Positions 728-24,222 of a stretch of 64,000 bases of DNA are shown here, one piece after another. The DNA is taken from the IMG/VR virus record IMGVR_UViG_3300044986_000857. One strand, given 5' to 3'. How positions within the stretch are numbered: position 1 is the first letter of the stretch; every line of letters starts with the position of its first letter. This stretch comes from an uncultured virus (IMG/VR IMGVR_UViG_3300044986_000857) (Duplodnaviria; Heunggongvirae; Uroviricota; Caudoviricetes). The translations under genes and the position numbers were made by a program. The notes beneath the pieces were generated by a model that saw only the letters and a list, made by a program, of their open reading frames with translations, was not told the origin of the DNA and did not search any database.

Positions 728-1876
728 TCAGCGCTTCTTCGGCTTCCGCCACCACGGCACGAACTCGTCGGGGTCCGGCGGGGGTGGCGGCGCGGCGGCT
801 GCCTCGGCGCGCAACGTCGCAAGCTCGTCTTCCAGCCGGGCAGCCTCGGCTTCGTGCGCGCGGGCTTCGGCGAGCGCTTCCAGATCGTACCGGGCGCGAA
901 CGCGGGCGTGCTCGGCGGCCATTTCATGCGCGGCGATCTTGACCCGGTACTGCATCCAAATCTCTGACGAATACGGGTTTTCCCGCACACCCTCCGCACC
1001 GTCACCTGCGGCCCGATACGCGCTCGGCGGCGACGGAACGCCAACCGACTCGCGCTCGGTCAGGGCTTCGCGCAAGTCCTCACGAAAATCCTTCACAAAG
1101 AAGTGGTCTTCGTCCTTGTCGGCGAGCGCTTCAGTCAGCTGCATGACGCGCGGCAGGCTTGTGATGTCCTTGCCGAGCGCCGACGCGGCGAGGTTCGTCA
1201 GCAGCGCACCAAGCGAGGAATCCATTGTGCTGTAGGTGCTCTTCTTGCCCTGTCGCACGGTCGGCGGCTGCCAGATGCCGACGTCGCCGATGAACAGGCT
1301 GCCGTCAGGGCGACGCAGCGCCAAAAGGTCGTCCTGCACGCGCCAGCCCGTCTCCTGCTCCAACGCGAGCAGGCGCGTTTCGAGCGCGTAGAACTCGTCG
1401 GGCGTCAGGGTGTCGGCGAGGTCGCCGTATTCGCGCACCAACGCGGGCGTGCCGTCGGACAACTCGACGTAGATGGTCCGCGGCACGACGTCGTAGCCCA
1501 TTTCGGCAAGCTCGTTGGCGACGCCGGCTTCGTGCATCATGTTGCGCTGTTGGTCGGCCCGGGTCCAGCGCTGCTTGTTGCCGTAGAGCGCTTGCGCCGC
1601 CGCGACCTTGACCGTGATCGGACCCTTCGCGGTCTGCGTCAGGAACGTCTGGCCGAAGTTTCCGCGACCCAAGGGCGCGCCGTGCTCGCGCGCGTGCTCG
1701 GCGACGACGGCGGCCTCGCGCACTTTGGGCAAGTCGAAGTGCCCCTCGGTCAACGTCGGCGGGTAGTCCAGCCACTCGCTCTTGACGGTGTAGTACGGCT
1801 CGCCGCCGCGCGTCTCACGCACTTCGCGGCTGCGGTACTCCGACCGGCCGGCGCGAGCGGGGTTCTTGCGCTTCAT
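728..1876 (-). CDS. Protein kinase-like protein
   Basis: Gly loop LGRGNFG, ITVK lysine, HE (alphaC), LVREY, VQDD catalytic loop and DVG (DFG-like). GGAG precedes ATG 1876. Confidence 0.7.
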   Translation of the reverse strand: MKRKNPARAGRSEYRSREVRETRGGEPYYTVKSEWLDYPPTLTEGHFDLPKVREAAVVAEHAREHGAPLGRGNFGQTFLTQTAKGPITVKVAAAQALYGNKQRWTRADQQRNMMHEAGVANELAEMGYDVVPRTIYVELSDGTPALVREYGDLADTLTPDEFYALETRLLALEQETGWRVQDDLLALRRPDGSLFIGDVGIWQPPTVRQGKKSTYSTMDSSLGALLTNLAASALGKDITSLPRVMQLTEALADKDEDHFFVKDFREDLREALTERESVGVPSPPSAYRAAGDGAEGVRENPYSSEIWMQYRVKIAAHEMAAEHARVRARYDLEALAEARAHEAEAARLEDELATLRAEAAAAPPPPPDPDEFVPWWRKPKKR

Positions 1877-1890
1877 ATCACGCTCCAAAC

Positions 1891-2928
1891 TCAAAACGGC
1901 AGAATCTCGTCCTCGTCGGGCCAGCTGGGCAAGTCGGCATCCTCGCCCGGCTGTCGTCCCGCCGGCAGGGCGGGGCGGTCGCGGTCGTAGGTGACGGCTT
2001 CCAAGAGCAAGTCTTCCTCGCCCATGTTTGGATCGTACGCCACGCCGTATCGCGTGTAGTCGGGATACGTCGGGCGCAAGCCTTCTTCCTGTCCGCGAAG
2101 TTCGATCTCTTCCTGTGTGTGTCGTGCAGTCACGAACGAGGGCATCTGAACGTCTTGTAAGCCCGGCACCGTGCGGAGCATATCGAGCAGCGGGGCCACC
2201 TGCCGCCACGTCTTCGCCTTCGACGTGGCGAGTGCGTGGTTGAACGCTTCCCGCAGACAGCAGAACTTCGTCTTGCGGTCGCCGCTCGCCATGAACGCAT
2301 CGAGCATCCCGTCAGTCCGCGGCAGCGGCGGGGGCTTCTTCGCCTCGCCCCGCTGCCATGCGAGGTACTGCCAATCGCGCTTGCTAAGGTCGTAGTCTTC
2401 GATGCGGTTGTCGTCGAGGATGATGTCGAGCACCTTCCAACGCTCGCGAGGCAGCGCGTCAGCGAGGCGATGCGCTTTTTTCAGCTTCTCGACGTCCGTG
2501 CGCGAGCGCTTCGCCGCGGCGGCGGCCTCTTTCGCTGCGGCCTTGGCGGCGGCCTCGGCCTCTTGCTTCGACGGGCGGCGCGGCGGCGTTCCCGGGGGCA
2601 TGAAGACGTCCTGCACCAGCTTGTGCAAGGCGTCAGTGCGAACGAGCATCCGGTGCCCGGTTTCGTCGTGACGCAAGTCGGCGACGGTGACTTCGCCCAT
2701 GCGCTGCACGCGCAGCACCTCGTAGTGCCCGGCCTGCGCGCCGTGTGGCACGCGCACTTTCTCGCCGGGCGCGGGCTTGACCGGCAGCTGGGCGGCGATG
2801 CGGGGGTCGTAGACGTAGCGGTACTTCTTCTTGTGCCCGGGCCACGGGATGCGGCGCAGGTACTTGTGCTCCGCGCCGTTCTCGATCAACTCGTCGGGGT
2901 CGTCGTCGAAATCGTCGTACGCGGTCAT
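1891..2928 (-). CDS. Hypothetical phage protein with HKYLRR...KYRYVY motif
   Basis: ATG 2928 overlaps the upstream stop (ATGA); natural-looking composition from this start. Confidence 0.7.
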   Translation of the reverse strand: MTAYDDFDDDPDELIENGAEHKYLRRIPWPGHKKKYRYVYDPRIAAQLPVKPAPGEKVRVPHGAQAGHYEVLRVQRMGEVTVADLRHDETGHRMLVRTDALHKLVQDVFMPPGTPPRRPSKQEAEAAAKAAAKEAAAAAKRSRTDVEKLKKAHRLADALPRERWKVLDIILDDNRIEDYDLSKRDWQYLAWQRGEAKKPPPLPRTDGMLDAFMASGDRKTKFCCLREAFNHALATSKAKTWRQVAPLLDMLRTVPGLQDVQMPSFVTARHTQEEIELRGQEEGLRPTYPDYTRYGVAYDPNMGEEDLLLEAVTYDRDRPALPAGRQPGEDADLPSWPDEDEILPF

Positions 2929-4571
2929 TCTTCGCCCTCGTCGTCGTCGTCGTAAAGGTCGTCGTCGTACGTCCACATACCGCCCATCGGCTGCGCGTAG
3001 GCGGCGCGGGCGAGCGCGGCCACTTCGGGGTCGGTGTACGCGAGCGGATCGGGGTTTTCGCGCATCGCGCCCTGCATCTGGTCCAACGCGGGCGGCATCT
3101 GCCGCATCTGCCGCAGCTGCCGTCGCAGCGCGTCTGCTTGGTCCAGCAACTCCCGCCGACGCCGTTCGTCCGGCTCGTTCGCCGCGCTGTCCCACAGTTC
3201 GTTGACCTCGGCGAAGACGCGCTCCTTTGCAGCGCTGGCAGCTTCCCACGTCTGCCCCTTCACGGGCGGTGCGAACGGGTCGATGCCGATGCGCTGCATG
3301 GCAAGCAGACCGGGTCGCAGATCGCCGATCTCTTCGATGGCTTGCGCGTGCGCTTCCCCGCCAAGCTGTGCGGTCAACGCGCGAAGGCGCGAAATCTTCC
3401 GCAGCAACGGGTCGTATGCGTCTGCTCTTGTCGGCATGTTCAAGTGGTTCACCAGAAACTCGACGACGGCGCGCACGTCGTCGACGCCCGCCTCGCCCTT
3501 GAACACGGCCTCGTCGGGATCGAAGCCCGGGATGCGGTTGGCCTTGCCCTTGACTTGCTTTACCCGCTGCTCGGGCAGACGCACCTCGATCGTGAACTTC
3601 GGCTTTCCGGCGGGCGTGCGGATTCCGTAAATGTCCATTTTTCCTTCTTCGACGCGCTCCCTGTAGTGCTCGCCGCCCACACAAATGCCAAGGCCGACCG
3701 GCGGCGACATTCCTTCCAGCGTCAGCTGCGCGGGGCGCAGCTTCGCGACGTAGAAGCCCCGCGCCGACGCGCCGCCGATGCTGTTGTTGGTGCCGTCGTA
3801 GCGATAGACGACGTCATCGGGCGCGAAGTCCATGCCTCGCAGCACAGTCATCACTTCGCCGATGTTCACGCGCAGAACGAGCGCGTCTTCCGTCCGCGTT
3901 GCGTGCGCGCTGGCGAACTCGTCGCGTCCGCGAATGACGCCTTTCTTCCAGCGCCAAATAGAAGCGTCCGGGTCGCGCAGCGCCATCCACTCTTTGTTCG
4001 TCATCTTCACTTTACGCAAAAACTCGACGCCCTCCCCCGTCAAGATTTCCACGGCGACGCGCACATCGCTGTCCGTGACGTACGGCCAAACGCTCTTCAA
4101 GAACGCTTTGCGGGCAATCTGATGCTTTCGACGTCCTCGTCCTCTGTGATAGCTGCGCTCGCCCAACGGCACAATCGTTTTCGTGTCGCTGACCACCACG
4201 CCGGGGTCTTGCCCCGACAGACTTCCCCCCATCAACAGCTCTTCCGCTCCGACTTCGTCAAGGTAGTAGAGATCGTCGATTCCAACCTTGTCAAAATACT
4301 CTGGTCCTGACAGCATCGTCGACACTACTTCAAGCGCCCTCTTCGACAAGCCTACCGGCTTGAACAGCTCAAGCGCAGCTGAAATCAAGCCTTTCAGCTG
4401 CTTGTTTTCTTGCGCCTTGCGAAACACTCTTTCTACTTCTTTTCTTTCCAGCCGATCCCTGACGTGCTGCACGACCGCCATGATGCGCTTGCTCTCGGCC
4501 TCGGCGTGCGCCACGGACGGGTTCTCGTAGGGGTAGTCGTAGTCGGCGTCGGGGTTGTAGCGGTAGCGCAT
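2925..4571 (-). CDS. PcfJ-like domain protein
   Basis: LEG...ICVGG..Y...V..G...IYGIR...GKPKFTIEV...VKQVKGKANR matches the PcfJ-like pattern. Confidence 0.7.
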   Translation of the reverse strand: MRYRYNPDADYDYPYENPSVAHAEAESKRIMAVVQHVRDRLERKEVERVFRKAQENKQLKGLISAALELFKPVGLSKRALEVVSTMLSGPEYFDKVGIDDLYYLDEVGAEELLMGGSLSGQDPGVVVSDTKTIVPLGERSYHRGRGRRKHQIARKAFLKSVWPYVTDSDVRVAVEILTGEGVEFLRKVKMTNKEWMALRDPDASIWRWKKGVIRGRDEFASAHATRTEDALVLRVNIGEVMTVLRGMDFAPDDVVYRYDGTNNSIGGASARGFYVAKLRPAQLTLEGMSPPVGLGICVGGEHYRERVEEGKMDIYGIRTPAGKPKFTIEVRLPEQRVKQVKGKANRIPGFDPDEAVFKGEAGVDDVRAVVEFLVNHLNMPTRADAYDPLLRKISRLRALTAQLGGEAHAQAIEEIGDLRPGLLAMQRIGIDPFAPPVKGQTWEAASAAKERVFAEVNELWDSAANEPDERRRRELLDQADALRRQLRQMRQMPPALDQMQGAMRENPDPLAYTDPEVAALARAAYAQPMGGMWTYDDDLYDDDDEGEE

Positions 4572-5528: not shown

Positions 5529-5822
5529 TCAGTCGTTTTTTCTCAGGAAGAAGTAGAGCACCGCGAGTCCAGCCACGGCTCCGATCAGCCAGCCCGTGTT
5601 GCTCTTGTTGCCGGCACTTCCAGCGTCTTCAACCGTTTCAAAGCGAATGGTGAGCTTTTCTCCATCCTTCGCTGCGGCGACACGCAGCATGTCTGCGCGG
5701 GCGACCTTGACAAGCGTGTCGCCTTCCTTGAACTGGATAGGGTCAGCCGCGGACTTCAACAGATTGCGCGCCTGCTCTCTTCGGCTTTCGCGTACTACGA
5801 CGTTTTGCGTGATCACCGCCAT
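5529..5822 (-). CDS. Small C-terminally anchored membrane protein
   Basis: GGAGG RBS; ends WLIGAVAGLAVLYFFLRKND. Confidence 0.75.
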   Translation of the reverse strand: MAVITQNVVVRESRREQARNLLKSAADPIQFKEGDTLVKVARADMLRVAAAKDGEKLTIRFETVEDAGSAGNKSNTGWLIGAVAGLAVLYFFLRKND

Positions 5823-5863
5823 GCAAACCTCCGCGTCGGGTTTTACCGCACCCGGGCGCTACG

Positions 5864-6670
5864 TCAGCCGTCGGCCTTCTTCGCCTTCTTCGGCTTCTTT
5901 TCCGAGGGAGCCTTCTTCAACGCCTTCTCCAACTCGGCGATGCGCTGCTCGACCTCTTCGGCGTCGAACGGCAACTCGGGAAGCTCCGGGGCCGGCTTCT
6001 TCTCGGCGTCGGCGAGGCGCGCTTCCAGCGATGCGATCTTGGCTTCCAGCGCGACCTTGTCGGCGGCGCGCGCCGCTTCGCACGCCTTGTGGTCGCCCTT
6101 GTCGTCCTGCAACTCGATCTTCTTCTCCTTGATCTCCAACTCCTTCATGCGCTGTTCGTGCTTCTGCTTCGCGAAGCTCTGGTAGAACTTCCACGCAGCG
6201 CCGCCGCCGCCGACGGCGATCAGCGTGAGCAGCACCGTGACGCCCGTGCCCCCGCTGCCGTCTCGCGGCAAGAGCGCTTGAATCTCGGCCACGGCCGTTG
6301 TCGCAGCCGGCGCTTCGGTCACATGCGCGAGCGGGGCCGCGGGCGGTCCCTGCAACGGCGCGGGCAGGGGCGCGGCCTTGCTCTCGCGCTCGACGGCAGC
6401 GTCGGCGGCGTCGGTGGCGTCGGTGGCGTCGGCGCTGTCTTGCGCGGGGGATGCTGGTTCGGTCATGGCTGGTTCCTTCTTTGTGTGCGCTGGGCGCGTG
6501 TTGAAAGCGGTGTTGGGGTCGTAGATGGTGAAGCACTCGCCCACGGGGATGCGACAGCCGCTCGCCGCAGTAAGCGCGCCCACCGGCAAGCATCCCTGTC
6601 CGTCTCGCGGAATGTCGTCGGCGAACTCGCACTCGGGCAGAAGCGGCCCGGCGTCGACGGGGTCGGTCAC
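5864..6670 (-). CDS. Membrane protein with coiled coil (holin candidate); alternative start at 6466
   Basis: GTG overlaps the endolysin stop; one TM (VTVLLTLIAVGGGGAAW) followed by a charged coiled coil. Confidence 0.6.
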   Translation of the reverse strand: MTDPVDAGPLLPECEFADDIPRDGQGCLPVGALTAASGCRIPVGECFTIYDPNTAFNTRPAHTKKEPAMTEPASPAQDSADATDATDAADAAVERESKAAPLPAPLQGPPAAPLAHVTEAPAATTAVAEIQALLPRDGSGGTGVTVLLTLIAVGGGGAAWKFYQSFAKQKHEQRMKELEIKEKKIELQDDKGDHKACEAARAADKVALEAKIASLEARLADAEKKPAPELPELPFDAEEVEQRIAELEKALKKAPSEKKPKKAKKADG

Positions 6671-7128
6671 TTGGGCATCCCGGGCGTGTAGACGGTCTTG
6701 CCGCCTTCGCGCGACGCGGTGAGGATCTGGCCGCGCTGCTTGCCGACCCGCTTGTGCGAGACGTGAATCCAGCCACCGTTCGGGTCGCCGGGCACAAGGA
6801 ACTCGCATATGAGCTGGTCAAAAGGGAGCTTCATCGCCACGATCTTCTTCGCGAGCGCGAGGTTGTCGAAGCCGTCGAACTCGATGTCCGCGGCTTCACC
6901 CGTGCTGTGCTGGCTGGTGTTGCTCCCGCCGACCGCCTTGTTCACGGCTGCGCTGCGAAAGCCGCTGTTGACGCGCATGGGCTTGCCCATCGCCACGCGC
7001 AGCGGCTCCAACACGTTCACGCAGAGCGCGCGAAGGTTCTCGACGACGTCGGGCGGCGGCGTGTTGTCGGCCTTGACCGACGTGCGGGTCATTTCAGCGA
7101 GGGTGAAGTGAGGCGACAGCTGGGTCAT
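6667..7128 (-). CDS. Peptidase M15A endolysin
   Basis: LSPHFTLAEM, SGFRS...N..VGG...SQH..GEAAD and WIHVS zinc-ligand motifs. Confidence 0.9.
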   Translation of the reverse strand: MTQLSPHFTLAEMTRTSVKADNTPPPDVVENLRALCVNVLEPLRVAMGKPMRVNSGFRSAAVNKAVGGSNTSQHSTGEAADIEFDGFDNLALAKKIVAMKLPFDQLICEFLVPGDPNGGWIHVSHKRVGKQRGQILTASREGGKTVYTPGMPK

Positions 7129-8138: not shown

Positions 8139-8861
8139 TCAACAACCGCCGCAACCACAGCTGCACACGGGATTGTGTCTCAAGTCTAGGTGCGCCGGCC
8201 GCGGCCGCACGCCCGGCCCAAGCGTCTGCACGTCGTCGGCGTCGTAGCTGATACGGACCCCGAACGCGCCTTCCGCGCACTCGTCGCACTCGCGCTCGGT
8301 GTGGTCGTCGTAGCCGTGCTGAATCAGAATGACGTGCCCGAGTTCGTGCATGAGCACGGCGTCGATGCGCTCGGGCGGCTGCGCGGCGAGCTTCGGCCTC
8401 ACGTACACCGTGTCGCCGTCGGTGGCCGCGAACGCGCGGCGTGAGCGCGGGTCGCGCCCGGCGAGCGCTGCTTCCTCGTCGACGACGAGCGTGGCGTGCG
8501 TGTTGATCATGGCGCACAACTCGTCGAAGCGTTCATGCAGCGGGTCGGGGTTTCGCCGCGCACCGCCGAGCCGCTTCGCGCGTCGCACGGCGTCGGCAAA
8601 CGCCGTGTTGATGCTCGACGACTGACCCCACAGCGCGTACCACGACCAGAACCCCGGGCTGCCCGGGTCGTCGAGGTTGTCGCGTTGGTGGCGGTTCCAG
8701 TACCGCTCGCGGCGCGCGGTGTCCTTGTGCTGCGTGAAGTCCTGCATCGACGAGTCGCCGAAGTGAACGACCTTGCCGCGCCCCGACGCCGTCGGCACGC
8801 GCACCATCCACTTCTTGCCCGGGCGCGTCGAGCGCTGCCGCTTGTAGTATTCGTCCGACAC
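8139..8861 (-). CDS. Two-domain protein: DUF5754-like domain plus zincin metallopeptidase-like domain
   Basis: KKWMV...VHFG...DFTQHKD..RR..Y..RH...SPGFWS..LW, then RRNP, then HELGH...E, then HNP and a CSCGCGGC tail. Confidence 0.65.
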   Translation of the reverse strand: MSDEYYKRQRSTRPGKKWMVRVPTASGRGKVVHFGDSSMQDFTQHKDTARRERYWNRHQRDNLDDPGSPGFWSWYALWGQSSSINTAFADAVRRAKRLGGARRNPDPLHERFDELCAMINTHATLVVDEEAALAGRDPRSRRAFAATDGDTVYVRPKLAAQPPERIDAVLMHELGHVILIQHGYDDHTERECDECAEGAFGVRISYDADDVQTLGPGVRPRPAHLDLRHNPVCSCGCGGC

Positions 8862-8877
8862 GATACGCTCTCCCCGC

Positions 8878-9072
8878 ATGAAACCTTACGTGGACCCTGT
8901 CGACGTGATCGCGCGGCCCTTCGCGGCCTTCTTCACCGAACTGTTCTGCGCTTCAGCCCGTCCGAACCCTGACTCGGTCGGCACCGCGCGCCTGCCCGCC
9001 GTCGATGACGTCGTGCGCTTCGACCTCTGCGTCGAGTGCTTGCGCGCACACGACGAGTGCTCCTGCGACTAG
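8878..9072 (+). CDS. Small Cys-rich hypothetical protein
   Basis: Fills the gap between two minus-strand genes; ends CVEC...CSC. Confidence 0.35.
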   Translation: MKPYVDPVDVIARPFAAFFTELFCASARPNPDSVGTARLPAVDDVVRFDLCVECLRAHDECSCD

Positions 9073-10247
9073 CGACGGCGACGGTGCGGGTTCTGCCTCG
9101 CCCACGCCTCTTCGTCGTTCCACAGGGTTGAAAGTCCCGCAGCGGCAAGATCGACCAACGTGGGGAACGACTCGACGACGTCGCCCTCGCTCGCGTTCTC
9201 AATCTCGTCTTGTGCTCTCGCCGCCCCGTACTGGTTGTATCCCATGCCGCTCTCGGCGAGCGCCCACGTCCATTCCAGCCACGCGCTCAAGGGCATCTGC
9301 TCAAACGCAGACTCGATCGCGTGCTGCGCCAGTTCCTTCGTTTCGTTGCGCGGCTGGTCGACGGCGAAGTGCTTGACGGCGTGCCACAGCACACGTCGCG
9401 CTTCTTGACTGAACGGCACGTCGACGAGGTCTGTGGACGTCCTCGACACGCTCTCTGCCGCGCGCGCCTCGCGCGCCGCGCGAGCCTTTTCGTACGCCGC
9501 GTCGGCTTCTTCCTCGGCGATGCGTGCGGCTTCTTCTTGGGCGCGCAAAGCGGCTTCTTGCGCCCGCAAATCGGCCTCGGAGATACGCGATACGCGCTCT
9601 GGTTCTCTGACCGGAGCAAGAACAGGAGCCGGCGCGGGTGCTGCCTTCTTGCCCCCGGTGAAGAAATCGAAAAAGCCGTTGCGTCGCAGGGCGCGCGGGT
9701 TCTTGCGCGGCTTGTCGTCGATCGGCATGCCGAACATGTCGACCTGTCGCGTGTCACTGGCCGCAGGCTTTTTCTTCTTCGGCTTGGCCTCGTACGACGA
9801 GGGCGCGAACAAGCCCTGCTGCACGACCTCGGCGCGCAGCTGCAACTCGCTCTGCTTTCGCCGCTGGCGCTCCTGCTCTTCGGCTTCCAAGCGCTCGCGC
9901 TCGACCCGCTCCGAGATCGCCTTGTAGTCGGGCAACTCGGGCGGCTGGAACGCCGCCGAACGCGCCAGCCGCGCCGCCCGCGCCTCGTCCGACCCGTACC
10001 ACGGCTCGTCGTCGGGGTTGCCGACCGGCTCGCTGCCCGACCGATGCTTCATGTGCTGAAAGATTCCCATGACGTAGGGCCAATCGCGCGCACGGCCCTG
10101 CCGCGCTGCGCTGGCCTTCGCCATGCGCCACAGCCGCTCGTCGCGCGCGGTGTGGACGACGCTCGCCGGGTTCTCGACGACGTCGACGTCGTCGTCCTCG
10201 TAATCGGTATCGGATTCAGCGTACTCGGGCGGGTTGTAGCGCGGCAT
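9069..10247 (-). CDS. Multi-segment protein punctuated by xNP motifs
   Basis: RYNP, VENP, GNP, RKNP, RRNG and RQNP separate compositionally distinct blocks. Confidence 0.8.
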   Translation of the reverse strand: MPRYNPPEYAESDTDYEDDDVDVVENPASVVHTARDERLWRMAKASAARQGRARDWPYVMGIFQHMKHRSGSEPVGNPDDEPWYGSDEARAARLARSAAFQPPELPDYKAISERVERERLEAEEQERQRRKQSELQLRAEVVQQGLFAPSSYEAKPKKKKPAASDTRQVDMFGMPIDDKPRKNPRALRRNGFFDFFTGGKKAAPAPAPVLAPVREPERVSRISEADLRAQEAALRAQEEAARIAEEEADAAYEKARAAREARAAESVSRTSTDLVDVPFSQEARRVLWHAVKHFAVDQPRNETKELAQHAIESAFEQMPLSAWLEWTWALAESGMGYNQYGAARAQDEIENASEGDVVESFPTLVDLAAAGLSTLWNDEEAWARQNPHRRRR

Positions 10248-10892: not shown

Positions 10893-10903
10893 CGCGGCTC
10901 CGT

Positions 10904-15107: not shown

Positions 15108-15122
15108 GACGCTCCTTTGCGC

Positions 15123-15842: not shown

Positions 15843-16453
15843 ATGCCCTCCCGATAGCCCGACAGGTAGAGCGCAACGACGTAGGCGTCGTAGCTCTCGT
15901 CCTTCAAGTCGCCGCCGAAAGCAAGAAGTTCAACCTCAAAAGTGAACGTCTCCATCGGTTCGATCACCAGCGGATCGCGAAACGACAGATGGTTTCCGGC
16001 TTCTCGCCTACCGCCCGCGAACATCGACACGCGCTTGTCTGCGTATTGCTTCTGCGTGATCGACGTAAGGAAGTTCCAGCGAAAATAAGGCGGAAGCACG
16101 TTGGCCGCCAAGCGAGGATCGTAGATGCGCGCGTTGCTGGCGGTGTTGACGAAGTATCTGTCAAACGCCAACTCGCGCAGGTACAGACGTGACGCCCCGT
16201 TCGTCCAGATGCCTCGCTTGACGTTGTTGCCCCAGCGCGCGTCGCTGTTGACGGGCGGGATCTGCCCGGCTTCGCCTTCGATGTTGTACGTCGACGGCAG
16301 GTTGTCGAAGCGCACTTCAATGGAGGCGTTCGTCAGAAGCTCGCGCGACACCGGGGGCGACGGTTCAATGCGCTTTCGCGCTCGATCAATCAGCGCATCG
16401 GCGGCCTTGTTCAAGTCGATCAGGGTCGACCAGAGAGAAGAGTCGGCAGTCAC
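15839..16453 (-). CDS. Putative single jelly-roll capsid paralogue
   Basis: FRWNFLTSITQKQY; PLVIEPMETFTF; terminal VALYLSGYR. Confidence 0.6.
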   Translation of the reverse strand: MTADSSLWSTLIDLNKAADALIDRARKRIEPSPPVSRELLTNASIEVRFDNLPSTYNIEGEAGQIPPVNSDARWGNNVKRGIWTNGASRLYLRELAFDRYFVNTASNARIYDPRLAANVLPPYFRWNFLTSITQKQYADKRVSMFAGGRREAGNHLSFRDPLVIEPMETFTFEVELLAFGGDLKDESYDAYVVALYLSGYREGM

Positions 16454-17103
16454 AGGGCGCTCCTATCCGGCACTTCGTGTCCGACGAACGACAGCTTCAC
16501 GCGGTAGGCGTTGATAGCCCCGCCGAAAAAGAAGCCCGGCAGATTGCCTGCGTCGACGACAGACACGAACGGGTCGATCGACGCAAACAACGCGGTGCCC
16601 CCTCCGAGGACGGCGCGACGCGGCAACCACAACGGCTCGACGTATCCGCCACCAAGGAACAAGCTCGGCTGCGGTTGATCGCACCACTCGCGATCGGTGC
16701 CCGTATCGCGAATCTTCCACAAGAAATCGAAGTACACCAGCCGCGAGCCCCACGGCAGAGTAGCGAACACCGTCGTCGGTTCGCCGGTAAAACGATCGAT
16801 TCCTTGCCCGACCGCCTGTACGAAGCTCTCGACGTATGCACAGCGAAACACCGTGCCGTTCTCGACGTTGACCGACCGTTCCTGCGGAACGAGCGATCCG
16901 GCTTGGAAGTCAAACTCGATCGTGTACCGCCGGTTTCGCGCGCCGTCGAAGTCCGTCGGAAACTGCCCGCCGGGCGCGTTCTTCGCCGTGATGGCTTCCA
17001 ACTGCTGCGTCTTGCTTTCCAGCTGACGCTGCAACTTGCGGTACTCGTTGGTGAGGTCGACGATCGCCTGCTGGATGGCGATCGAGTCCATGACGTCAGA
17101 CAC
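16450..17103 (-). CDS. Putative single jelly-roll capsid paralogue
   Basis: GGAGG before GTG 17103; VENGTVFRC; WKIRDTGTDREW; terminal VKLSFVGHE. Confidence 0.6.
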   Translation of the reverse strand: MSDVMDSIAIQQAIVDLTNEYRKLQRQLESKTQQLEAITAKNAPGGQFPTDFDGARNRRYTIEFDFQAGSLVPQERSVNVENGTVFRCAYVESFVQAVGQGIDRFTGEPTTVFATLPWGSRLVYFDFLWKIRDTGTDREWCDQPQPSLFLGGGYVEPLWLPRRAVLGGGTALFASIDPFVSVVDAGNLPGFFFGGAINAYRVKLSFVGHEVPDRSAL

Positions 17104-17857
17104 CCGGCACCTCCACGTACTGCCGCCCCTTGAGGACGAGGCAGACATACGCCTTGACCTGCAAGCCCGTCACTTCGGCCGTGTCGAAGCCGGGCTGGAT
17201 CTCGTTCAAGTACAAGCGCGGCTCGATGTTGCTTCCCTTATCAAAACGAATCGGGCTCGCGATCTTGCGATGCGCGATGCGGCCTGACTGAAACAACTCG
17301 ACGGGGAGACGACCTTCGTGCAGCCGGCGACCGCGCAGGCGGTCATACAACTCCACGTCAAAGCTGATGTTCATTTGATTGGGTATCGTGACCGAAAGCT
17401 GGCCGAACGTACCGCCGAAGAAGTCCATCGGCATCGCGCCGCCGTTCTGGTCGACGACGTTGTCGAAAATGTCGCCGACCGGGCCGATGCGCGGCACTTC
17501 ATAGCCGGGGTCTGCGGTATATCCGATGTTGATGAAGCCGTAGGCCGCGAGGCTCTGCACTTCGAACGTCAACTCGCGCCCGATCAGCGCGTTGCCGTTG
17601 CGGGCCGTAACGGGCGTTGCAGGCGGGTTGGTCGCCGAAACAAGTGGCAGCGGGCCGTAGAGCAGCGGCAGCGCGTACGGAATGATCTTGCCCGGGTACT
17701 GGTCTGCCGGGGCCGGCTCGTTCAGCATGTCGTTGATGTCCGCGAACTTCGCGGAGATCGTGTCCATGAACCGCTTGAAGGGCAGCTGGCGGTGCTTGTC
17801 GAGCAGGTTGCCGAAGTCTGGCTTGACATCGTAGTCGGGTTGCTTCGTGCGGCTCAT
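17096..17857 (-). CDS. Putative single jelly-roll capsid paralogue
   Basis: VELYDRLRGRRL; PIRFDKGSNIEP; terminal VCLVLKGRQ. Confidence 0.6.
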   Translation of the reverse strand: MSRTKQPDYDVKPDFGNLLDKHRQLPFKRFMDTISAKFADINDMLNEPAPADQYPGKIIPYALPLLYGPLPLVSATNPPATPVTARNGNALIGRELTFEVQSLAAYGFINIGYTADPGYEVPRIGPVGDIFDNVVDQNGGAMPMDFFGGTFGQLSVTIPNQMNISFDVELYDRLRGRRLHEGRLPVELFQSGRIAHRKIASPIRFDKGSNIEPRLYLNEIQPGFDTAEVTGLQVKAYVCLVLKGRQYVEVPGV

Positions 17858-17988: not shown

Positions 17989-18957
17989 ATGACCGTCTGC
18001 GGAATCTACGCGATCAAAAACACCGTCAACGGCAAGCTCTACATCGGGCAGTCCCTCGACGTCCTGCAACGATGGCGGCAGCACAAGCACCGTCTCGACG
18101 AAGGCACGCACTTGAACGCCCATCTTCAAGCTGCGTGGCAAATGCACGGGGCCAACTCCTTCCTGTTCCAAGTGCTACGCGTTTGCGAACCTGACGCACT
18201 CGGCACGACCGAAGAAGCCGTGCTCGCCGCTGTTTCGCCCGACCTTCGCTACAACATCGGCCCGGCCGGCGACAACCCCACGCGCGGCTTGAAGCACGGC
18301 GAGAGCGTGCGCGCGAACATGAGCCGCGCCAAAGGCGGGCGTCCTGTCGTCGCGACGAACGTGGAGACGGGAGAAGAGCGGCGTTTCGCGCATTTGAAAC
18401 AAGCTGTCGACATTCTTGGTTTGTCCTACGCGCATGCGTGGGAGGCGTGCAACGGAAAGGGAGGCCGCCCCACCGTGAAAGGTTGGCGCTTCCGTCACGA
18501 CTCCGACTACGTGCCGCCTGCTCCGAAAGAAAAATCGCCGCGCAAGCGTCTTGATCGGCGCAGTCGAGAAATCGTCGGCACCCACGTCGACACCGGAGAA
18601 GAAATCCGCTTTGCGCGTGTCGCGGCTGTGCGCGAGCGCGGATTCATGCGCGAGAGCGTGATCAAGTGTTTGGCCGGGCAGATGAACACGCACGGAGGCT
18701 ACCGCTGGCGCTATGCTGACGGGCTGCCCCACGGAACGCTGGACGATGCGTGGAAGGCCAAACTACGTCAACCTCGAAAGCACGGAAACAGCGCGTCTCG
18801 GCCTATCGTCGGAACACACGTCGTCACCGGAGAAGTCGTACGTTTTTCTTATCTTGCCGAAGCCGCGCGCGCGGTGGGGGTCAGCGGACCCGCGCTCAAC
18901 CGTATGATTGCGGGCAAATCGAAGAGCGCTGGCGGGTATGTGTGGAAATACGAGTAA
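17989..18957 (+). CDS. Free-standing GIY-YIG homing endonuclease with NUMOD-type repeats
   Basis: GIYAIKN...LYIGQS...R...H...N.HLQ; three C-terminal repeats of the type G...R.F...A...G..W. Confidence 0.9.
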   Translation: MTVCGIYAIKNTVNGKLYIGQSLDVLQRWRQHKHRLDEGTHLNAHLQAAWQMHGANSFLFQVLRVCEPDALGTTEEAVLAAVSPDLRYNIGPAGDNPTRGLKHGESVRANMSRAKGGRPVVATNVETGEERRFAHLKQAVDILGLSYAHAWEACNGKGGRPTVKGWRFRHDSDYVPPAPKEKSPRKRLDRRSREIVGTHVDTGEEIRFARVAAVRERGFMRESVIKCLAGQMNTHGGYRWRYADGLPHGTLDDAWKAKLRQPRKHGNSASRPIVGTHVVTGEVVRFSYLAEAARAVGVSGPALNRMIAGKSKSAGGYVWKYE

Positions 18958-19024: not shown

Positions 19025-19768
19025 CTACTGGACGTCACGGGTCTTGATGCCATCCAGAATCACGCCGAGCATCTTGATGCCGTCGAAGGCATTGAGGTAC
19101 GCGAGCGGGTCGAGAGCAGCGGTGTACGACGTGGCCGCTTCGCCGCCTTCGCCCGACGTACCGGCCGTCGTACCAGCGCCAGCGCCGGGGACGTTGCCGG
19201 TGATCGGCTTGAACGGGAAGAAGTCAAGGCGAACCGAGATACCCTGACGTGCAGGAATCGGAATATCCTTGGCAAGCAAAAGTACATTTTCGTGAGAAGG
19301 CCACCCGTTGCTCACGATATTGCGCTGGTTCACAGTCGAAGAACCAAACACACCCATACCGGCGGGGGTGTAGACCAGCTGCGAGGTGAACTGGTCCTTC
19401 TCGCCGGCCTTGAACGTCAGGTGGCAGCCGTACGAGAGCAGGCTGTAGAGGTCCACAGCGCGGTCAGCGTCAGCGGCGACCGAGTCACCCGACAGGGCCG
19501 GGAGCAGCTGCGGATTGCCGTACGCGCCGAACGCCGACGCATCCTTGAGCGACTGGAAGAATTCCAGCGCGCGGATCGCCTTCACAACGTAGGTCTGGTC
19601 GCTCTGGAGAGCGCCGGCCGTCGCCATGTTGGTGAACTCTTCCGACGAGGTGTTGGGGTTCGCGAAGAGGCGAACGCCGTTGATCACCGAGGACAGACCG
19701 ATACCACGAACGGCCATATCCCAAAGCGGCTGGTGGATTCGTTCGCGCGCGCCATCAAAACGAGGCAT
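19025..19768 (-). CDS. Candidate major capsid protein (single jelly-roll type)
   Basis: Strong AGGAAGGA RBS and downstream terminator; HQPLWD...TNM...G.L; IPIPARQGISVRL; terminal LGVILDG strand shared with the array. The fold is inferred. Confidence 0.55.
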   Translation of the reverse strand: MPRFDGARERIHQPLWDMAVRGIGLSSVINGVRLFANPNTSSEEFTNMATAGALQSDQTYVVKAIRALEFFQSLKDASAFGAYGNPQLLPALSGDSVAADADRAVDLYSLLSYGCHLTFKAGEKDQFTSQLVYTPAGMGVFGSSTVNQRNIVSNGWPSHENVLLLAKDIPIPARQGISVRLDFFPFKPITGNVPGAGAGTTAGTSGEGGEAATSYTAALDPLAYLNAFDGIKMLGVILDGIKTRDVQ

Positions 19769-19865: not shown

Positions 19866-21023
19866 TCAACGAGAGAGCATCGGCATCTTGGTAAAGATAC
19901 CGCCTTCGCCCGGAGCGAACTCCGTGGCGTTGTCGTGGCCGCCACGGTCTTCCAGCAGGCCGAGGCCGCCCGTGGCCGCCCATTCCATCTGGTTGTCACC
20001 GTAGTTGCGCGGACGGAACGGGTGAGCCTGCCCGACGGTGGTGTACTCACCCACGCCACGGAAGATCCCGCTGCCAACGGTGGTGTACTCACCGACGCCG
20101 TGGAAGATGCCGCCGCCGACGGTGGTGTACTCACCCAGCGAAAGCGCCTTCTTGGCCTTGCCGAGCAGGCTGTCGTCCTTGACAGACGGATCCATCGCAG
20201 CCGCGCCGACGGCCTGCACGATCGCGCCGATCATGCCGCCGATGGCGATGGCACCCTTGTAACGGGGCGCGACCTTGTCGGCGACAACGAACGCAACCGC
20301 CGAGAGAGCCGCCGTAGCGAGCGCGGGGCTGTACTTGCCGAGGGTCGACGCGCCCTTGGACGGATCTTTCTCGTCGGCAAGAAAGCTCTTCTTGAACGTC
20401 GTGTTGCCCGCCTTGTCCTTTTCCATGACGAGCATTTCGGCGATGTACTTGCCAGCCAGCGTCAGACCGACGAGGCCGCCGGCACCGACCAGCGCGACCG
20501 GCGCGATCAGCTTGGCCGATTCCATCAGGCTGCCGTTCGACTTCAAGGTCATGGCCTTGATCAGCGGCGACTTGAGCGCCTTGTTGCGACCGCGGTCACG
20601 CACGACAGCGGCGAGCGCCGACAGACGAGCCGCCTGCGCCGAGTGCGCGCGCTTGGACGTGCCCTTGGCACGCTTGGCCGCACGGCGCTGCGCCTTGGCC
20701 GACCGCTCCAACGCGGACGACACGCGCTTGCGCTGATTGGCCTCTTCGCGCTTGATGGCCTTCGCCCAATCGGACTTCCAACCACGCTTCTTCGAGAAAT
20801 CGAATCGGGCGGGCGCGTCCGAACGACCGGCTTCGGCAGCCATGATTGCCGCCGTCGACGACGTTTCGCCACCCGCAATCGCGGCGAGCGCCGCATCGGC
20901 TTCCACCGAGGCTGCCGCCTCGGGGCCGTTGCGACGCAGCCGGCGGCGCGGGTTCTTCTTGAGGACGACGTGACGGACCTTGTACTTCGCGCGCGGGTTG
21001 CGGCGGTGCTTGCGACGAGCCAT
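19866..21023 (-). CDS. Basic core-like protein with GEYTTVG repeats
   Basis: Arg/Lys-rich N-half with RRNP, KKNP, RRNG; hydrophobic helices; three GEYTTVG; DNATEFAPGEGGIF. Confidence 0.8.
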   Translation of the reverse strand: MARRKHRRNPRAKYKVRHVVLKKNPRRRLRRNGPEAAASVEADAALAAIAGGETSSTAAIMAAEAGRSDAPARFDFSKKRGWKSDWAKAIKREEANQRKRVSSALERSAKAQRRAAKRAKGTSKRAHSAQAARLSALAAVVRDRGRNKALKSPLIKAMTLKSNGSLMESAKLIAPVALVGAGGLVGLTLAGKYIAEMLVMEKDKAGNTTFKKSFLADEKDPSKGASTLGKYSPALATAALSAVAFVVADKVAPRYKGAIAIGGMIGAIVQAVGAAAMDPSVKDDSLLGKAKKALSLGEYTTVGGGIFHGVGEYTTVGSGIFRGVGEYTTVGQAHPFRPRNYGDNQMEWAATGGLGLLEDRGGHDNATEFAPGEGGIFTKMPMLSR

Positions 21024-21099: not shown

Positions 21100-22467
21100 T
21101 CACTCGCGGAAGATGCCACCCGACAGAACGCCGCCCTCACCGGGGGCGAACTGCGACGCATCATCGAGGCCGCGCAGCGAGTCGGCCGCGAATTCGGTGG
21201 CGTTGTCACCGCCGCCGCCGACGGTCGTGTACTCACCGAGGCCGTGGAAGATGCCCGCGCCGACGGTCGTGTACTCGCCGATGCCAGCAGCCTCAGCGGC
21301 CGGAGCCGCAGCCGGCGCGACGGGCAGCAGCGCAGCCCTCACGCTCGACGCCCAATTGCCCTTGCCTTCCGTGTCGGTTTCGACGGACGCCATGACGGCC
21401 TGCACGATCGCGCCGATCATGCCGCCGATCATCACCGCGCCCTTGAAGCGCGGAGCGACCTTGTCAGCGACCATGTAGCCGACGATCGAGAGGCCCGCAG
21501 TCGAGAGCGCCGGGGTGTACTTGCCGAGCGCCGACAAGCCCTTCGTCGGATCCTTCTCGTCGGCAAGAAAGCTCTTCTTGATCACAGCGTTGCCTGCCGT
21601 GTCCTTCTCCATGACGATCATGTCGGCGATGTACTTGCCGGCCATCGCAAGACCGACAAGACCAAGGCCGCCAACCGCCGCCTGCGGAGCGAGCAGCTTG
21701 GCTGCCTGCACGACGCCTTCAAAGCCCGGGTTCGACCGGGTCATCATGGCGTGCTGCAAGCCGCGGATCGCCGGGCGAATCTTCTTGGCCGAGGCGCGCG
21801 AGTGGGCGAGCGACGAGATCGCGCTGGCGCGACGGATCTGCGCCGAGAGGGCGCGACGGCGCAGCGAGCGCTTCGGGGCCTTCTTCGCGCGCTTCTTGAG
21901 CGTGGCGACCGTACGCTTCGCCTTGGCCCGGAACTTCTTGGAGAGCGGGTTCGCGTGACGGCGACGACGGCGCTTCGCGGCCGGGTTCGCCTTGGCAGCG
22001 CGACGACGGCGGCGACGCGACGCGGGGTTCGCCTTGACAATGATGTTGGCGACAACACGCTTCTTGCGACGACGACGACGCGACGGAGACGCCTTCTTGG
22101 CCTTCGCCTTCTTCTTCGCCTTCTTCGCGGGGTTCTTCTTCAGACGTCGCTTGACGAACTTGCCATGCCGATCACGCTTGGGGAGTGCCACGGGGTTCTT
22201 CCTCTTCTTTTTGGGCTTCTTCTTGCCCGGATTCATGGTTGGAGCAGCTGCACCCGCAGCAGCGCGGTGCGCCCGATGCGCCTCACGTGCTCCGAGGTAC
22301 AAATCGCGCGCCGATTCAGCGGCGTAGCGAGATCCACGATACATCCCGCTTCCAAGACGTCGCGCCCATTCCGGGTTGTGCCGCGCCGTCATACCCGGGC
22401 GACCCGGATTGACGACAAGCAACTCGACCGGATTGGACCGCATGCGGCGGTGTCGTGTCAAAGCCAT
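21100..22467 (-). CDS. Highly basic core-like protein, paralogue of 19866-21023
   Basis: About ten xNP motifs between Arg/Lys runs; C-half closely similar to its neighbour (KKSFLADEKDP, VADKVAPR, GEYTTVG). Confidence 0.85.
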   Translation of the reverse strand: MALTRHRRMRSNPVELLVVNPGRPGMTARHNPEWARRLGSGMYRGSRYAAESARDLYLGAREAHRAHRAAAGAAAPTMNPGKKKPKKKRKNPVALPKRDRHGKFVKRRLKKNPAKKAKKKAKAKKASPSRRRRRKKRVVANIIVKANPASRRRRRRAAKANPAAKRRRRRHANPLSKKFRAKAKRTVATLKKRAKKAPKRSLRRRALSAQIRRASAISSLAHSRASAKKIRPAIRGLQHAMMTRSNPGFEGVVQAAKLLAPQAAVGGLGLVGLAMAGKYIADMIVMEKDTAGNAVIKKSFLADEKDPTKGLSALGKYTPALSTAGLSIVGYMVADKVAPRFKGAVMIGGMIGAIVQAVMASVETDTEGKGNWASSVRAALLPVAPAAAPAAEAAGIGEYTTVGAGIFHGLGEYTTVGGGGDNATEFAADSLRGLDDASQFAPGEGGVLSGGIFRE

Positions 22468-22473
22468 GTGGGG

Positions 22474-22496: not shown

Positions 22497-22521
22497 ACCA
22501 CGCGCGGTGTCGCTTTGGCTG

Positions 22522-23229
22522 TCAGTAGACGATGCCGCGCTCGTCAAAGTGCATCCGGCCGCCCTTGACGATGATCAGCTTCCACTTCGGGTCGTGAATG
22601 ATCACCGTCTTCTGGTCAACGCAGCCGTACACTTTCGCGCCGCGATTGATCTGAATGTCCGCGCCGTCCTCGCCGTCGTCGAGACCGAACGAAAGCGGTG
22701 TCGCAAGCTCTGCAACTTCCACCTGCCCGTTTTCGTTGACCGCCCCAGAAACAAGGTCGCCAACGGTCTTGTCGGGGTTGCTTCGCGCACTTGCCGGCAG
22801 CTTCTTCGTCAGCATGTAGACCGACGGCTTGCTGTCGAAGTGGTGAATGTAGTCGTTGGTCTTGCGCCCCGACTCCCACTTGCCGCTGCGGTACACGATG
22901 TTGTGCGCTTGTCCGACGCACAGCATCCCGTCGTCCTCGGAACACCCGCCGCTGACCACAAACCTGTTGCGCGGCTCCTTGCGGTGCCACATGCGGTAGA
23001 CGTCCTCGGCGTCCTTGCGCGGATTCTTCCTGATAGGCCGCCAGCTGGCCGGGTCATTCGGCGGCAGCTTGTGTGAACCGACGACGGGCTTGGTCATCAC
23101 CTTGGGAACACCGCCCTCTTTTCCAAAAGCGAGCGCACGTTCGCTGGCTTCCAACCACGTCGGCCAACCGGAATCAATGTTGATACCGTGAATGTCGACG
23201 ACGTACCACTTGTATTCCGGGCGGTTCAC
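22522..23229 (-). CDS. Hypothetical virion-module protein
   Basis: GTGA-coupled start; RKNP and RSNP between segments. Confidence 0.75.
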   Translation of the reverse strand: MNRPEYKWYVVDIHGINIDSGWPTWLEASERALAFGKEGGVPKVMTKPVVGSHKLPPNDPASWRPIRKNPRKDAEDVYRMWHRKEPRNRFVVSGGCSEDDGMLCVGQAHNIVYRSGKWESGRKTNDYIHHFDSKPSVYMLTKKLPASARSNPDKTVGDLVSGAVNENGQVEVAELATPLSFGLDDGEDGADIQINRGAKVYGCVDQKTVIIHDPKWKLIIVKGGRMHFDERGIVY

Positions 23230-23690
23230 TTGAGCGCCTTTTGGACAAGAACACCGACAATGCCAGCGACGCATGCTGCGAGGATGGCTTGGCCGATGTT
23301 GGGTTTGACTTCAATCTCGACAGGCGGGTTCGTCGGCAGCGTCACCGGCTCGCCGATATCTCCGAGGCCCGCGAGCGCCCCTCGCAACGCCGGGCCGCTG
23401 CCTCCCTTGTCGGCGAGCATCGCGGCAACCGGATCACCACCAGCGCGAACGGCGATCACACCGCGAGCGCGTGTGCCCGTGCCGATAGGCTGCGCGCCGG
23501 GCGGCAGGATGAAAGCGAGCGCTTCGGGCGAGAAGCCGATCGTGGCTTGCGCCCCCAGCCCGGGACACAACTCTGGCGGGCGATTGGGTGCCCGAAACTT
23601 CGTACCGACGATGCCGTGGTCCCGCGCTGTACCGGGGCAGTCGTAGTAGCTGTAGATGCGCCGTGCCGGATCGTAGACGGAGCAGATCAT
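23226..23690 (-). CDS. C-terminally anchored membrane protein
   Basis: GAGG RBS; PGLG and LAGLG motifs; C-terminal TM. Confidence 0.7.
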   Translation of the reverse strand: MICSVYDPARRIYSYYDCPGTARDHGIVGTKFRAPNRPPELCPGLGAQATIGFSPEALAFILPPGAQPIGTGTRARGVIAVRAGGDPVAAMLADKGGSGPALRGALAGLGDIGEPVTLPTNPPVEIEVKPNIGQAILAACVAGIVGVLVQKALK

Positions 23691-23706
23691 GGCGTCCTCA
23701 TAGTGG

Positions 23707-24222
23707 TCAAAGCGAATACGATCGTGCGAAACCAACGCGGCGGTGCATGATCGCCGTTCCGTCGTCGGCGACAGGATCGACCGTAGCCCACACCCTCTCG
23801 CCCGCCGCGTTTCCGCCCCCAGCGTCAGCCGTGCGAAGCGCAACCTGACAGAACACGTGGCTTGGGTTCTTGTCCTCAAACCCGACAACCATGAACCGAC
23901 ACTCGTTGCCGATGGACATAAGCATCGCCGCAAGCAGCGTCGCGAGGTCATCGCAGTCGCCGCCGCCGAGCGCCAAGACCTTTTGCGGTGAGATTACAAG
24001 CTCGACGTCGTGAATGTCCCGAACGTAGCGGACGTGCTGGCAGACCCAGTTATAGATGGCAAGGATCTCGCCGTTGTAGTCGCCGGGCTGCAAGTCCCGA
24101 ACAATCTCGCGCGTGAGCCGCAAGATGCCGAGGTCTTTCTTCGCAGCGTGCGCAAGGTTGCGCATAGCAACGATCGTGTCGTCAAGCGACGGGTTCTTCT
24201 TGATGGTTCCGCGCAGCTGCAT
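23707..24222 (-). CDS. Transglutaminase-like cysteine protease (candidate maturation protease)
   Basis: GDCDD (Cys), SHVF (His) and VDP (Asp) form the papain-like/transglutaminase triad; WV..HVRY..D upstream. Confidence 0.8.
   Translation of the reverse strand: MQLRGTIKKNPSLDDTIVAMRNLAHAAKKDLGILRLTREIVRDLQPGDYNGEILAIYNWVCQHVRYVRDIHDVELVISPQKVLALGGGDCDDLATLLAAMLMSIGNECRFMVVGFEDKNPSHVFCQVALRTADAGGGNAAGERVWATVDPVADDGTAIMHRRVGFARSYSL

Follow-up and report, generated by a model that had tools for sequence, protein, structure and literature searches.

An Asn-Pro motif at the module junctions of late proteins of an uncultured virus and its possible role as a processing site

Polyvalent proteins of phages and conjugative elements combine unrelated enzyme and effector domains in single polypeptides, with extensive mosaicism and in a late or virion gene context; as surveyed by Iyer et al. 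(2017; PMC5512222), they frequently carry a metallopeptidase domain and are predicted to be released by built-in peptidases, and the P1 proteins DarA and DdrB are cut before packaging in the head. Here, we describe a short motif with the core Asn-Pro (NP) that recurs at the module boundaries of late proteins encoded by the IMG/VR record IMGVR_UViG_3300044986_000857, a 64 kb stretch of metagenomic sequence with a guanine-plus-cytosine (GC) content of ~0.65 (hereafter, the window). Its multi-domain proteins resemble the polyvalent proteins in their combination of unrelated domains, their mosaicism and their gene context, and a zincin with a HELGH motif is a candidate counterpart of the metallopeptidase. 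They differ in having a fixed Asn-Pro seam with Arg or Lys two residues upstream of Asn (position -2), no defined junction motif being described in the passages of that survey considered here (PMC5512222). The seam also segments polybasic membrane proteins here, and the virus seems to be non-tailed, with a jelly-roll capsid protein.

A second group of comparable systems comprises the maturation proteases of adenovirus, which cut core and cement precursors, and the prohead protease of T4, which removes N-terminal capsid-targeting leaders; their sites are Gly-rich or of the Leu/Ile-x-Glu type. The present motif is likewise a short consensus found in many unrelated precursors, including polybasic ones, with a candidate protease gene among the structural genes (cleavage being presumed here), and the short N-terminal leaders that are removed in those viruses are proposed to be removed here as well. 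The motif itself is different, as are the protease folds, the candidates here being a transglutaminase-like Cys-His-Asp protein or a small zincin. The 2A StopGo sequences of RNA viruses, with the consensus D(V/I)ExNPGP, are also module separators that contain Asn-Pro, and some of the seams described here read D-V-x-E-N-P; to our knowledge, 2A does not work on bacterial ribosomes. A separator of the 2A type was rejected for the present motif, NPGP occurring once among the 620 NP examined, with varying residues upstream.

The same dipeptide is the self-cleaving bond of bacterial RsgI, of reovirus mu1 and aquareovirus VP5, two viral capsid proteins (PMC10328401), and of the NPTH sequence of FlhB and YscU (PMC3708937), with Pro as the first residue of the downstream part in those proteins as in ours. 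Each of them has a single site in a folded domain, which provides the chemistry; the proteins of the window have up to 10 sites each, in flexible or low-complexity sequence and with an upstream Arg or Lys. Our literature search, whose coverage did not extend to subscription journals and supplements, found no description of such a motif.

An Asn-Pro motif enriched in non-capsid late proteins

The late proteins considered here are encoded by the minus-strand block of the window (the late genes discussed below lie on this strand unless marked otherwise), and expected counts were obtained by within-protein shuffles on the gene calls of this analysis. In all 30 late minus-strand proteins, NP occurs 51 times versus 18.4 expected, [RK]-x-N-P 25 times versus 2.15 and R-x-N-P 20 times versus 1.33, values that none of 1000 shuffles reached. 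The 22 late proteins outside the capsid array contain 41 NP versus 11.95 expected, 24 [RK]-x-N-P versus 1.58, carried by 11 of the 22, and 19 [PLAIVM][RK]-x-N-P versus 0.63 (0/2000 shuffles in each case), an enrichment stronger than the one that had been proposed from a first reading of the sequence (hereafter, the original prediction). The capsid gene and the seven-gene array that follows it (eight proteins) yield 10 NP versus 6.6 expected (232/2000) and a single [RK]-x-N-P versus 0.63. The other 52 proteins of the window show a mild excess of NP (31 versus 17.8; 1/2000), with four [RK]-x-N-P versus 1.9 expected (254/2000). In the late set, none of the control dipeptides NG, PN, DP, QP and NA departs from expectation. 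For NG (21 versus 20.8), this removes the earlier suggestion that it is a general variant of the motif, which we retain for two homologous positions of one protein (19866-21023, see below).

Of the 41 NP sites, 19 have Arg and five have Lys at position -2, so that the preference for a preceding basic residue had been rightly noted and can now be assigned specifically to this position. Position -3 is mostly Pro, Leu, Ala, Ile, Val or Met, position -1 is polar, and there is no preference after Pro. The motif is thus [P/L/A/I/V/M]-[R/K]-x-Asn-Pro, with Asn-Pro as its constant core. Seven of 25 [RK]-x-N-P sites lie within the first 15 residues of their protein versus 1.1 expected (P ~5e-5); the last 50 residues hold four sites versus 3.75 expected, which is not significant. 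Recurrence of a short consensus above chance in several unrelated late proteins is a property of the motifs of maturation proteases.

Selection on this motif acts at the protein level and not on the DNA, since the signal is frame-specific and synonymous codons vary as they do in the background. Of the AACCC words in the late genes, 41 lie in one codon frame, with two and one in the others, the Asn and Pro codons of the motif show the usage seen for these residues elsewhere in the genes concerned (Fisher p 0.58, chi-square p 0.67), and Arg or Lys at position -2 is encoded by six different codons. In related loci, AAT as well as AAC is used for Asn, and all four Pro codons occur.

These relatives (23 metagenomic loci and one from a Gemmatimonadota metagenome-assembled genome; GC 0.44-0.67) were found with an alignment of homologues of the capsid protein. 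Genes were called on the 16 loci of at least 5 kb, and [RK]-x-N-P was counted on the strand of the capsid gene, with 300 shuffles each. No shuffle reached the observed count in L004 (14 versus 1.7 expected), L007 (10 versus 1.4), L011 (9 versus 0.8), L010 (8 versus 0.6), L017 (6 versus 0.8), L016 (5 versus 0.4) and L002 (5 versus 1.0), and one of 300 did so in L019 (5 versus 0.6) and L024 (3 versus 0.4). The signal is weaker in L014 (R-x-N-P, 4 versus 0.6), L015 (3 versus 1.1) and L012 (2 versus 0.9), and no motif signal was found in L009, L018 and L022, loci that cover only the capsid gene and the array side.

Module seams and conserved sites

The most informative result is the coincidence of the motif with module borders, as in the family of the mosaic multi-module protein 9069-10247, which has five NP seams: PRYNP (10230-10244), VVENP (10167-10181), PVGNP (10014-10028), PRKNP (9696-9710) and ARQNP (9087-9101), the last being followed by a five-residue basic tail. 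Six sites had been counted in this protein, five of which are NP and the sixth NG. The 18 proteins of the family consist of modules of ~40-110 residues in varying order, with x-N-P at every joint. For instance, the module that begins with ASVV is preceded by NP when it is internal and also when it comes first, in which case only 2-5 residues stand before the dipeptide. An NP is present within the first 20 residues of 17 of the 18 members, and the family contains 88 NP versus 10.3 expected, 88 of its 137 Asn (64%) preceding Pro. Internal ends of BLASTP segments, which are not mutually independent, lie at most three residues from an NP in 160 of 323 cases, versus 10.2% of random positions.

The same test gave 68 of 309 BLASTP ends (22%), again not mutually independent, versus 4.1% of random positions in the family of the DUF5754-zincin protein (8139-8879), for which 23 homologues were found, 20 of them aligned with the window protein. 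The latter consists of a DUF5754 domain (Pfam E 2.6e-15), ARRNP (8547-8561), a zincin with HELGH (8334-8348), LRHNP (8169-8183) and a Cys-rich tail. Family members share the N-terminal domain, followed by [A/V][R/K]-x-N-P and then by modules that differ between them. The zincin comes directly after the first NP site in 8139-8879; three homologues have an extra module ahead of it, ending in R-x-N-P (P0083 and P0093) or ENP (P0092). In P0095 and P0096, the domain after DUF5754 is named tyrosine phosphatase by the source, and P0096 has PF18905. In P0084 and P0088, extra modules follow the zincin and the second NP site, with precomputed PF13772 and PF06094 in P0084. The modules inserted at either site carry their own flanking motif. 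One of them, between RHNP and RSNP of P0100, is 66% identical over 35 residues (E 4e-11) to the N-terminal part (residues 29-59) of the polybasic protein 21100-22467, and the shared module starts with the same RHNP in both proteins. The DUF5754 family thus joins unrelated domains in one polypeptide, and both it and the 9069-10247 family show mosaicism, as polyvalent proteins do.

The AlphaFold2 model of 8139-8879 has a mean predicted local distance difference test score (pLDDT) of 81.5, with values below 50 only at residues 1-7, 106-111 and 236-246. The ARRNP joint corresponds to residues 106-111, and the stretch from the Asn of LRHNP to the end corresponds to residues 236-246; a helix starts at residue 113, right after N110-P111. 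The motif of this modelled protein therefore sits in joints predicted to be flexible. Location in linkers or at domain borders, a property of maturation sites, is indicated by these low-pLDDT stretches together with the breakpoint test. The Cys-rich tail that follows the last NP (8139-8183 in the window; P0080-P0094) ends in Cys in most close relatives; one could speculate that it is a cysteine switch, whose removal would activate an otherwise latent zincin.

Two genes upstream of the capsid gene encode polybasic proteins (21100-22467 and 19866-21023) whose N-terminal half is very basic and whose C-terminal domain is hydrophobic and conserved. The first contains 10 NP versus 0.77 expected, in line with the ten or so counted originally (Asn at residues 12, 20, 31, 79, 91, 112, 147, 161, 173 and 246). 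The last of these, N246 in TRSNP (21727-21741), lies immediately before the hydrophobic domain and is invariant in the 35 family members, with P247 present in at least 90% of them, at a mean column identity of 23%. A second site of the family, RRL(R/K)RNP, is nearly invariant. These two sites thus hold their position among diverged relatives; certain others are not kept. The second polybasic protein, 19866-21023, is homologous to the first (46% identical in the family alignment). Of the four sites attributed to it, two are NP, HRRNP (20994-21008) and LKKNP (20949-20963), and the other two are NG, LRRNGP (20922-20939) and LKSNGS (20529-20546), at alignment columns that are NP in relatives; in the NG column, N163 is invariant and the next column is Pro in at least 90% of 26 alignment rows.

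An exhaustive search for this family returned 34 representatives. Its 35 members contain 168 NP versus 18.4 expected, 44% of all their Asn precede Pro, the median spacing of NP is 24 residues, and 34 of the 35 have an NP in the first 30 residues. P0062 contains tandem 16-residue basic repeats with one NP in each. A strand-like element of the ELLVVNPG type, flanked by NP, is present at polybasic N-termini in the window (22405-22443), L012, L015, L016 and L017, and also inside the L007 homologue (6232-7041) of the window protein 22522-23274; it might be a docking strand. L003, which was read by open reading frames (ORFs), has a 216-residue polybasic ORF with nine NP. The polybasic gene of this locus (5572-6933) is split by an in-frame stop into this basic ORF and a 198-residue ORF, whose first Met lies four residues ahead of the family-invariant NP; the split may be an assembly error or a natural one near a seam.

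In the two-part protein 22522-23274, IRKNP (23020-23034) stands between an N-terminal module and a domain conserved in all relatives, and ARSNP (22774-22788) is a second site. All four extended forms of this family (window, L004, L007 and L024) have an NP ~7-17 residues upstream of the conserved (M/E)WH motif, and the five short forms all begin at the conserved domain, without NP. The location of the motif at domain or module boundaries, as originally proposed, is thus borne out by the breakpoints of two mosaic families, by the flanked inserts of the DUF5754 family, by the sites of 8139-8879 in an inter-domain linker and a C-terminal tail, and by the domain of 22522-23274 that starts just after IRKNP.

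All sites named individually in the original prediction exist: KRKNP and VRENP in 728-1876, YRYNP, PYENP and MRENP in 2925-4571, ARRNP and LRHNP in 8139-8879, and IKKNP in 23707-24222. The labels given to the first two of these proteins fared less well. The 382-residue kinase-like protein 728-1876 has KRKNP (1859-1873) at residue 5 and VRENP (974-988) at residue 300, before a C-terminal extension. It has no Pfam match even at E up to 5, so that its designation as a kinase is not upheld by Pfam; language-model features (0.93 to kinase clusters) and look-alikes of the predicted structure (template modelling score, TM, 0.40-0.52) are leads only. The PcfJ-like protein 2925-4571 has YRYNP (4551-4565) and PYENP (4518-4532) at its N-terminus, and MRENP (3051-3065) precedes a 42-residue tail that ends in an acidic run. 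Its PcfJ match of 24.5 bits falls below the Pfam cut-off of 25, and it has no match among the loci of the relatives.

Three further proteins also carry the motif. The membrane protein 10281-10907 has four NP, as had been counted, in RGNNP (10818-10832), LRENP (10518-10532), LLSNP (10434-10448) and PLLNP (10311-10325), the last preceding a basic tail. Its site after a hydrophobic and acidic stretch is kept in all three proteins compared (window, L004 and L015), and the tail site in two of the three. In the membrane protein 10904-11446, ARENP (10955-10969) is followed by a 16-residue acidic tail. The 756-residue, coiled-coil-rich protein 24629-26899 has PRSNP (26864-26878) at residue 11 and three more NP without a basic residue at position -2; L004 has an NP at the place equivalent to PRSNP (KPNP), and more distant orthologues begin later.

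Gene context and candidate enzymes

The plus-strand half of the window encodes a family-A DNA polymerase, a primase/helicase, a PD-(D/E)XK nuclease, an intein-bearing ATPase, an integrase, and fibre-like and lysozyme-like proteins. The minus-strand block (1-26899) encodes an M15 endolysin, the DUF5754-zincin protein, the weak PcfJ-like protein, a transglutaminase-like protein and many proteins without family match. The probable capsid protein (19025-19768), which served as an anchor for finding relatives and is not itself a motif carrier, has 45 homologues, and an identical product is encoded on a 77,793-base contig. Its AlphaFold2 model is a beta sandwich (pLDDT 64) whose best matches are viral jelly-roll capsid proteins: SPV1 (6oj0_Z) with a Foldseek E of 2e-3 and, with VIA, the Orf virus D13-like protein, SPMV and SPV1 with Z of 7.3-7.4, and FLiP with 6.6. 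These similarities suggest that 19025-19768 encodes a jelly-roll capsid protein, with scores below the level that proves common descent.

Seven conserved, co-oriented genes encoding proteins of 200-310 residues without family match follow the capsid gene (12782-17857) and are syntenic in relatives. We do not treat them and the capsid gene as paralogues, their mutual BLASTP comparison giving nothing below E 0.3. Between the capsid gene and this array, a GIY-YIG and NUMOD-like homing endonuclease gene lies on the opposite strand (17989-18957, plus strand), and L007 and L011 have an opposite-strand ORF at the equivalent place. Contigs carrying homologues of the capsid protein reach 64-110 kb. We recognised neither a portal nor an HK97-type capsid protein in the window, and terminase-labelled PHROG matches are found only on the intein-bearing ATPase (44331-47321, plus strand), from which it follows that the lineage may be one of large non-tailed phages. 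This 996-residue P-loop ATPase has PHROG labels for both terminase and helicase/primase, and an intein-like insertion with a LAGLIDADG homing endonuclease. No match was found in the known-phage collection, either for window positions 1-25000 by megablast or for 21100-22467 by tblastn, and IMG/VR, scanned with 19866-21023, 19025-19768 and alignment A1, yielded no usable locus.

Two regions of the window have an unusual composition. The GC content reaches 0.75-0.82 at 28000-34000, over a MoxR-like AAA+ gene (29072-30361), an unassigned gene and a VWA-domain gene (31608-33203), and the genes in this region are almost without Asn. An Asn-rich ORF (56047-57189, plus strand; 40 Asn in 380 residues) with a very low coding score (9.5) adjoins a cement-protein-like gene in the part of the window with the lowest GC content.

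Two proteins of the late block are candidates for a processing enzyme. The transglutaminase-like protein 23707-24222 belongs to the superfamily of Transglut_core (PF01841; E 4.1e-10, 40.3 bits versus a cut-off of 23). Its presumptive Cys-His-Asp triad, C90, H122 and D149, together with the motifs GDCDD (23947-23961), SHV (23854-23862) and DPV (23770-23778), is invariant in 10 of 10 sequences. A gene for this protein lies 3-4.4 kb upstream of the capsid gene in all 12 loci that reach that far (L010 and L011 being near-duplicates). A sequence search of the PDB with it returned nothing below E 0.03. In four distant relatives, the protein is fused to a homologue of the product of 23226-23735 (L015 6995-7846, L017 4197-5084, L019 7037-7933 and L024 3923-4789). 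The fused proteins end in a hydrophobic stretch and basic residues, which suggests a membrane-anchored enzyme. A complex prediction of the transglutaminase-like protein with residues 222-270 of 21100-22467 scored 0.00, with controls not run, and gives no evidence either way. The second candidate, the zincin of 8139-8879, resembles minigluzincins weakly in its fold (4jiu, E 0.045, TM by target 0.58); among the loci, it is found only in L004, the sole close relative reaching that far. The transglutaminase-like protein is the best candidate for a processing enzyme and the zincin the second, neither of the two being linked to the motif.

Proposed cleavage and its alternatives

The motif thus marks junctions between exchangeable modules of non-capsid late proteins, under selection that acts on the protein. 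In the most likely reading, to which we give an even chance, a protease encoded by the virus recognises it as a site of endoproteolytic processing. Mosaic precursors would then be cleaved at Asn-Pro or beside it, which would free small modules and enzyme domains. Trimming would remove short N-terminal leaders (Met, up to ~17 residues, NP) and the short charged C-terminal tails after the last NP, and the polybasic N-terminal halves of the two membrane-anchored proteins would be cut into protamine-sized basic peptides. Processing is favoured over a passive linker because NP is found right after the initiator Met and before tiny charged tails, and because polybasic regions are segmented by it. 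Furthermore, residue preference is confined to positions upstream of and at Asn-Pro, which resembles subsite recognition by a protease. From these patterns we infer that the sites are cut, at which bond and by which enzyme, and that the substrates are virion or delivered proteins. A role of the motif in loading of proteins into the virion, as originally proposed, would also be plausible.

Several observations weigh against cleavage by a viral protease. Most endopeptidases disfavour Pro directly after the scissile bond, so that cutting between Asn and Pro would call for an unusual enzyme, and cutting after Pro for one of post-proline specificity; we know of no such specificity for either candidate fold. 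The content of order-promoting residues within 10 residues of the sites is close to that elsewhere in these proteins (0.237 versus 0.264, p 0.13), and the fold evidence for flexible joints comes from one protein. IKKNP does open the transglutaminase-like protein, as had been pointed out for the putative protease, and its NP is kept in only three of nine orthologues; moreover, the joint with the 23226-like domain in the four fused relatives lacks NP. The ARSNP of 22522-23274 is lost in L004, and the ARENP of 10904-11446 is found in two of four proteins, being kept in L004 and absent in L007 and L009. Finally, the status of proteins as late or virion-associated is based solely on strand and on the neighbourhood of the capsid gene, and genes and start codons come from a codon-bias caller made for this analysis.

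The alternative that survives best, though we hold it clearly less probable than processing, is a short linear motif that is never cut, either a docking tag for a capsid, membrane or packaging component, or a rigid Asn-Pro turn or helix start that insulates modules. Helices commonly start with Asn as the N-cap and Pro in the first helical position, a pattern to which the helix that follows N110-P111 in the model of 8139-8879 conforms. The position of the motif at seams and in linkers and its conservation fit an uncut motif as well as they fit cleavage; its N-terminal enrichment also speaks for such a role, and the recurrent NP-flanked ELLVVNPG-type element resembles a docking strand. Some polyvalent proteins, such as the N4 virion RNA polymerase and ArdC, are described as delivered uncut (PMC5512222). 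However, loading would require a single tag per protein, whereas the proteins here have as many as 10, with one at each seam. Neither a fixed dipeptide nor a basic residue at position -2 nor an NP 2-5 residues after Met is required for a passive linker, and many sites precede strands, acidic runs or tails of 4-9 residues rather than helices.

Self-cleavage of the Asn-Pro bonds, with the side chain of Asn cyclising as in asparagine lyases, is unlikely in our view; it would dispense with a sequence-specific protease and might be triggered inside the particle or upon entry. Without catalysis, Asn-Pro bonds take weeks to break, and the preference for Arg or Lys at position -2 and for hydrophobic residues or Pro at position -3 points to an external reader. 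The chemistry has precedents at the same bond in RsgI, mu1 and VP5 (PMC10328401) and in export proteins of the FlhB type (PMC3708937, PMC3430611), and the constancy of N-P alone, with Pro always the first residue of the downstream part, would agree with it. The known cases, as far as these sources describe them, need a folded catalytic surrounding, the RsgI site being a turn between two strands (PMC10328401); in contrast, the two modelled sites of 8139-8879 lie in low-confidence stretches, and many others lie in polybasic low-complexity sequence. A related reading, to which we assign the same low probability, takes Asn-Pro alone as a two-residue release code, the modules between seams being separable by Asn cyclisation without a site-specific protease. 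The transglutaminase-like enzyme, by acting on the side chain of Asn, might then provide generic catalysis of the cyclisation; the proteins would be plug-and-play polyproteins, and the polybasic halves would be precursors of protamine-like, DNA-condensing peptides.

A still less probable explanation is a DNA-binding turn, similar to SPKK or the AT-hook, in polybasic genome-condensing proteins, the sites elsewhere being DNA-tethering tags or incidental. The density of NP is indeed highest in the polybasic proteins, as in the tandem units of P0062, and several terminal sites lie within basic patches. However, many sites have acidic or neutral surroundings (the acidic tails of 10904-11446 and 2925-4571, VVENP, PVGNP and the acidic seams of the 9069-10247 family), the invariant polybasic site borders the hydrophobic domain outside the basic repeats, and the coincidence with module seams would be left unexplained.

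The plain shuffling of modules between relatives at NP points could also reflect a recombination junction in the DNA, a word for cassette exchange that reads Asn-Pro in frame by accident. We regard this as highly improbable and largely refuted by the near absence of AACCC from the other two frames, by the freedom of the Asn, Pro and -2 Arg/Lys codons to vary synonymously at background usage, and by the retention of the motif with other codons in relatives with a GC content of 0.44. Chance or amino-acid composition, suggested by the mild NP excess even in the other genes, can be dismissed almost entirely, none of 2000 shuffles having reached the counts, the controls being flat, and the enrichment recurring both in independent relatives and across three protein families.

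If the seams are cut, be it by a protease or by self-cleavage, the lineage would rely on a single portable junction, simple in form, to build, swap and set free small effector modules and basic peptides by the dozen. This would represent a new protease specificity or a new self-cleaving linker, and would explain how mosaic polyvalent proteins gain modules without loss of function. It would also provide a sequence rule for predicting the mature products of many uncharacterised viral proteins, and a seam this short might be of use as a linker in protein engineering. Even if the seams are not cut, one dipeptide placed strictly at module seams, to the point that 64% and 44% of Asn precede Pro in two families, is unusual, and it provides a marker for parsing these proteins into their modules.

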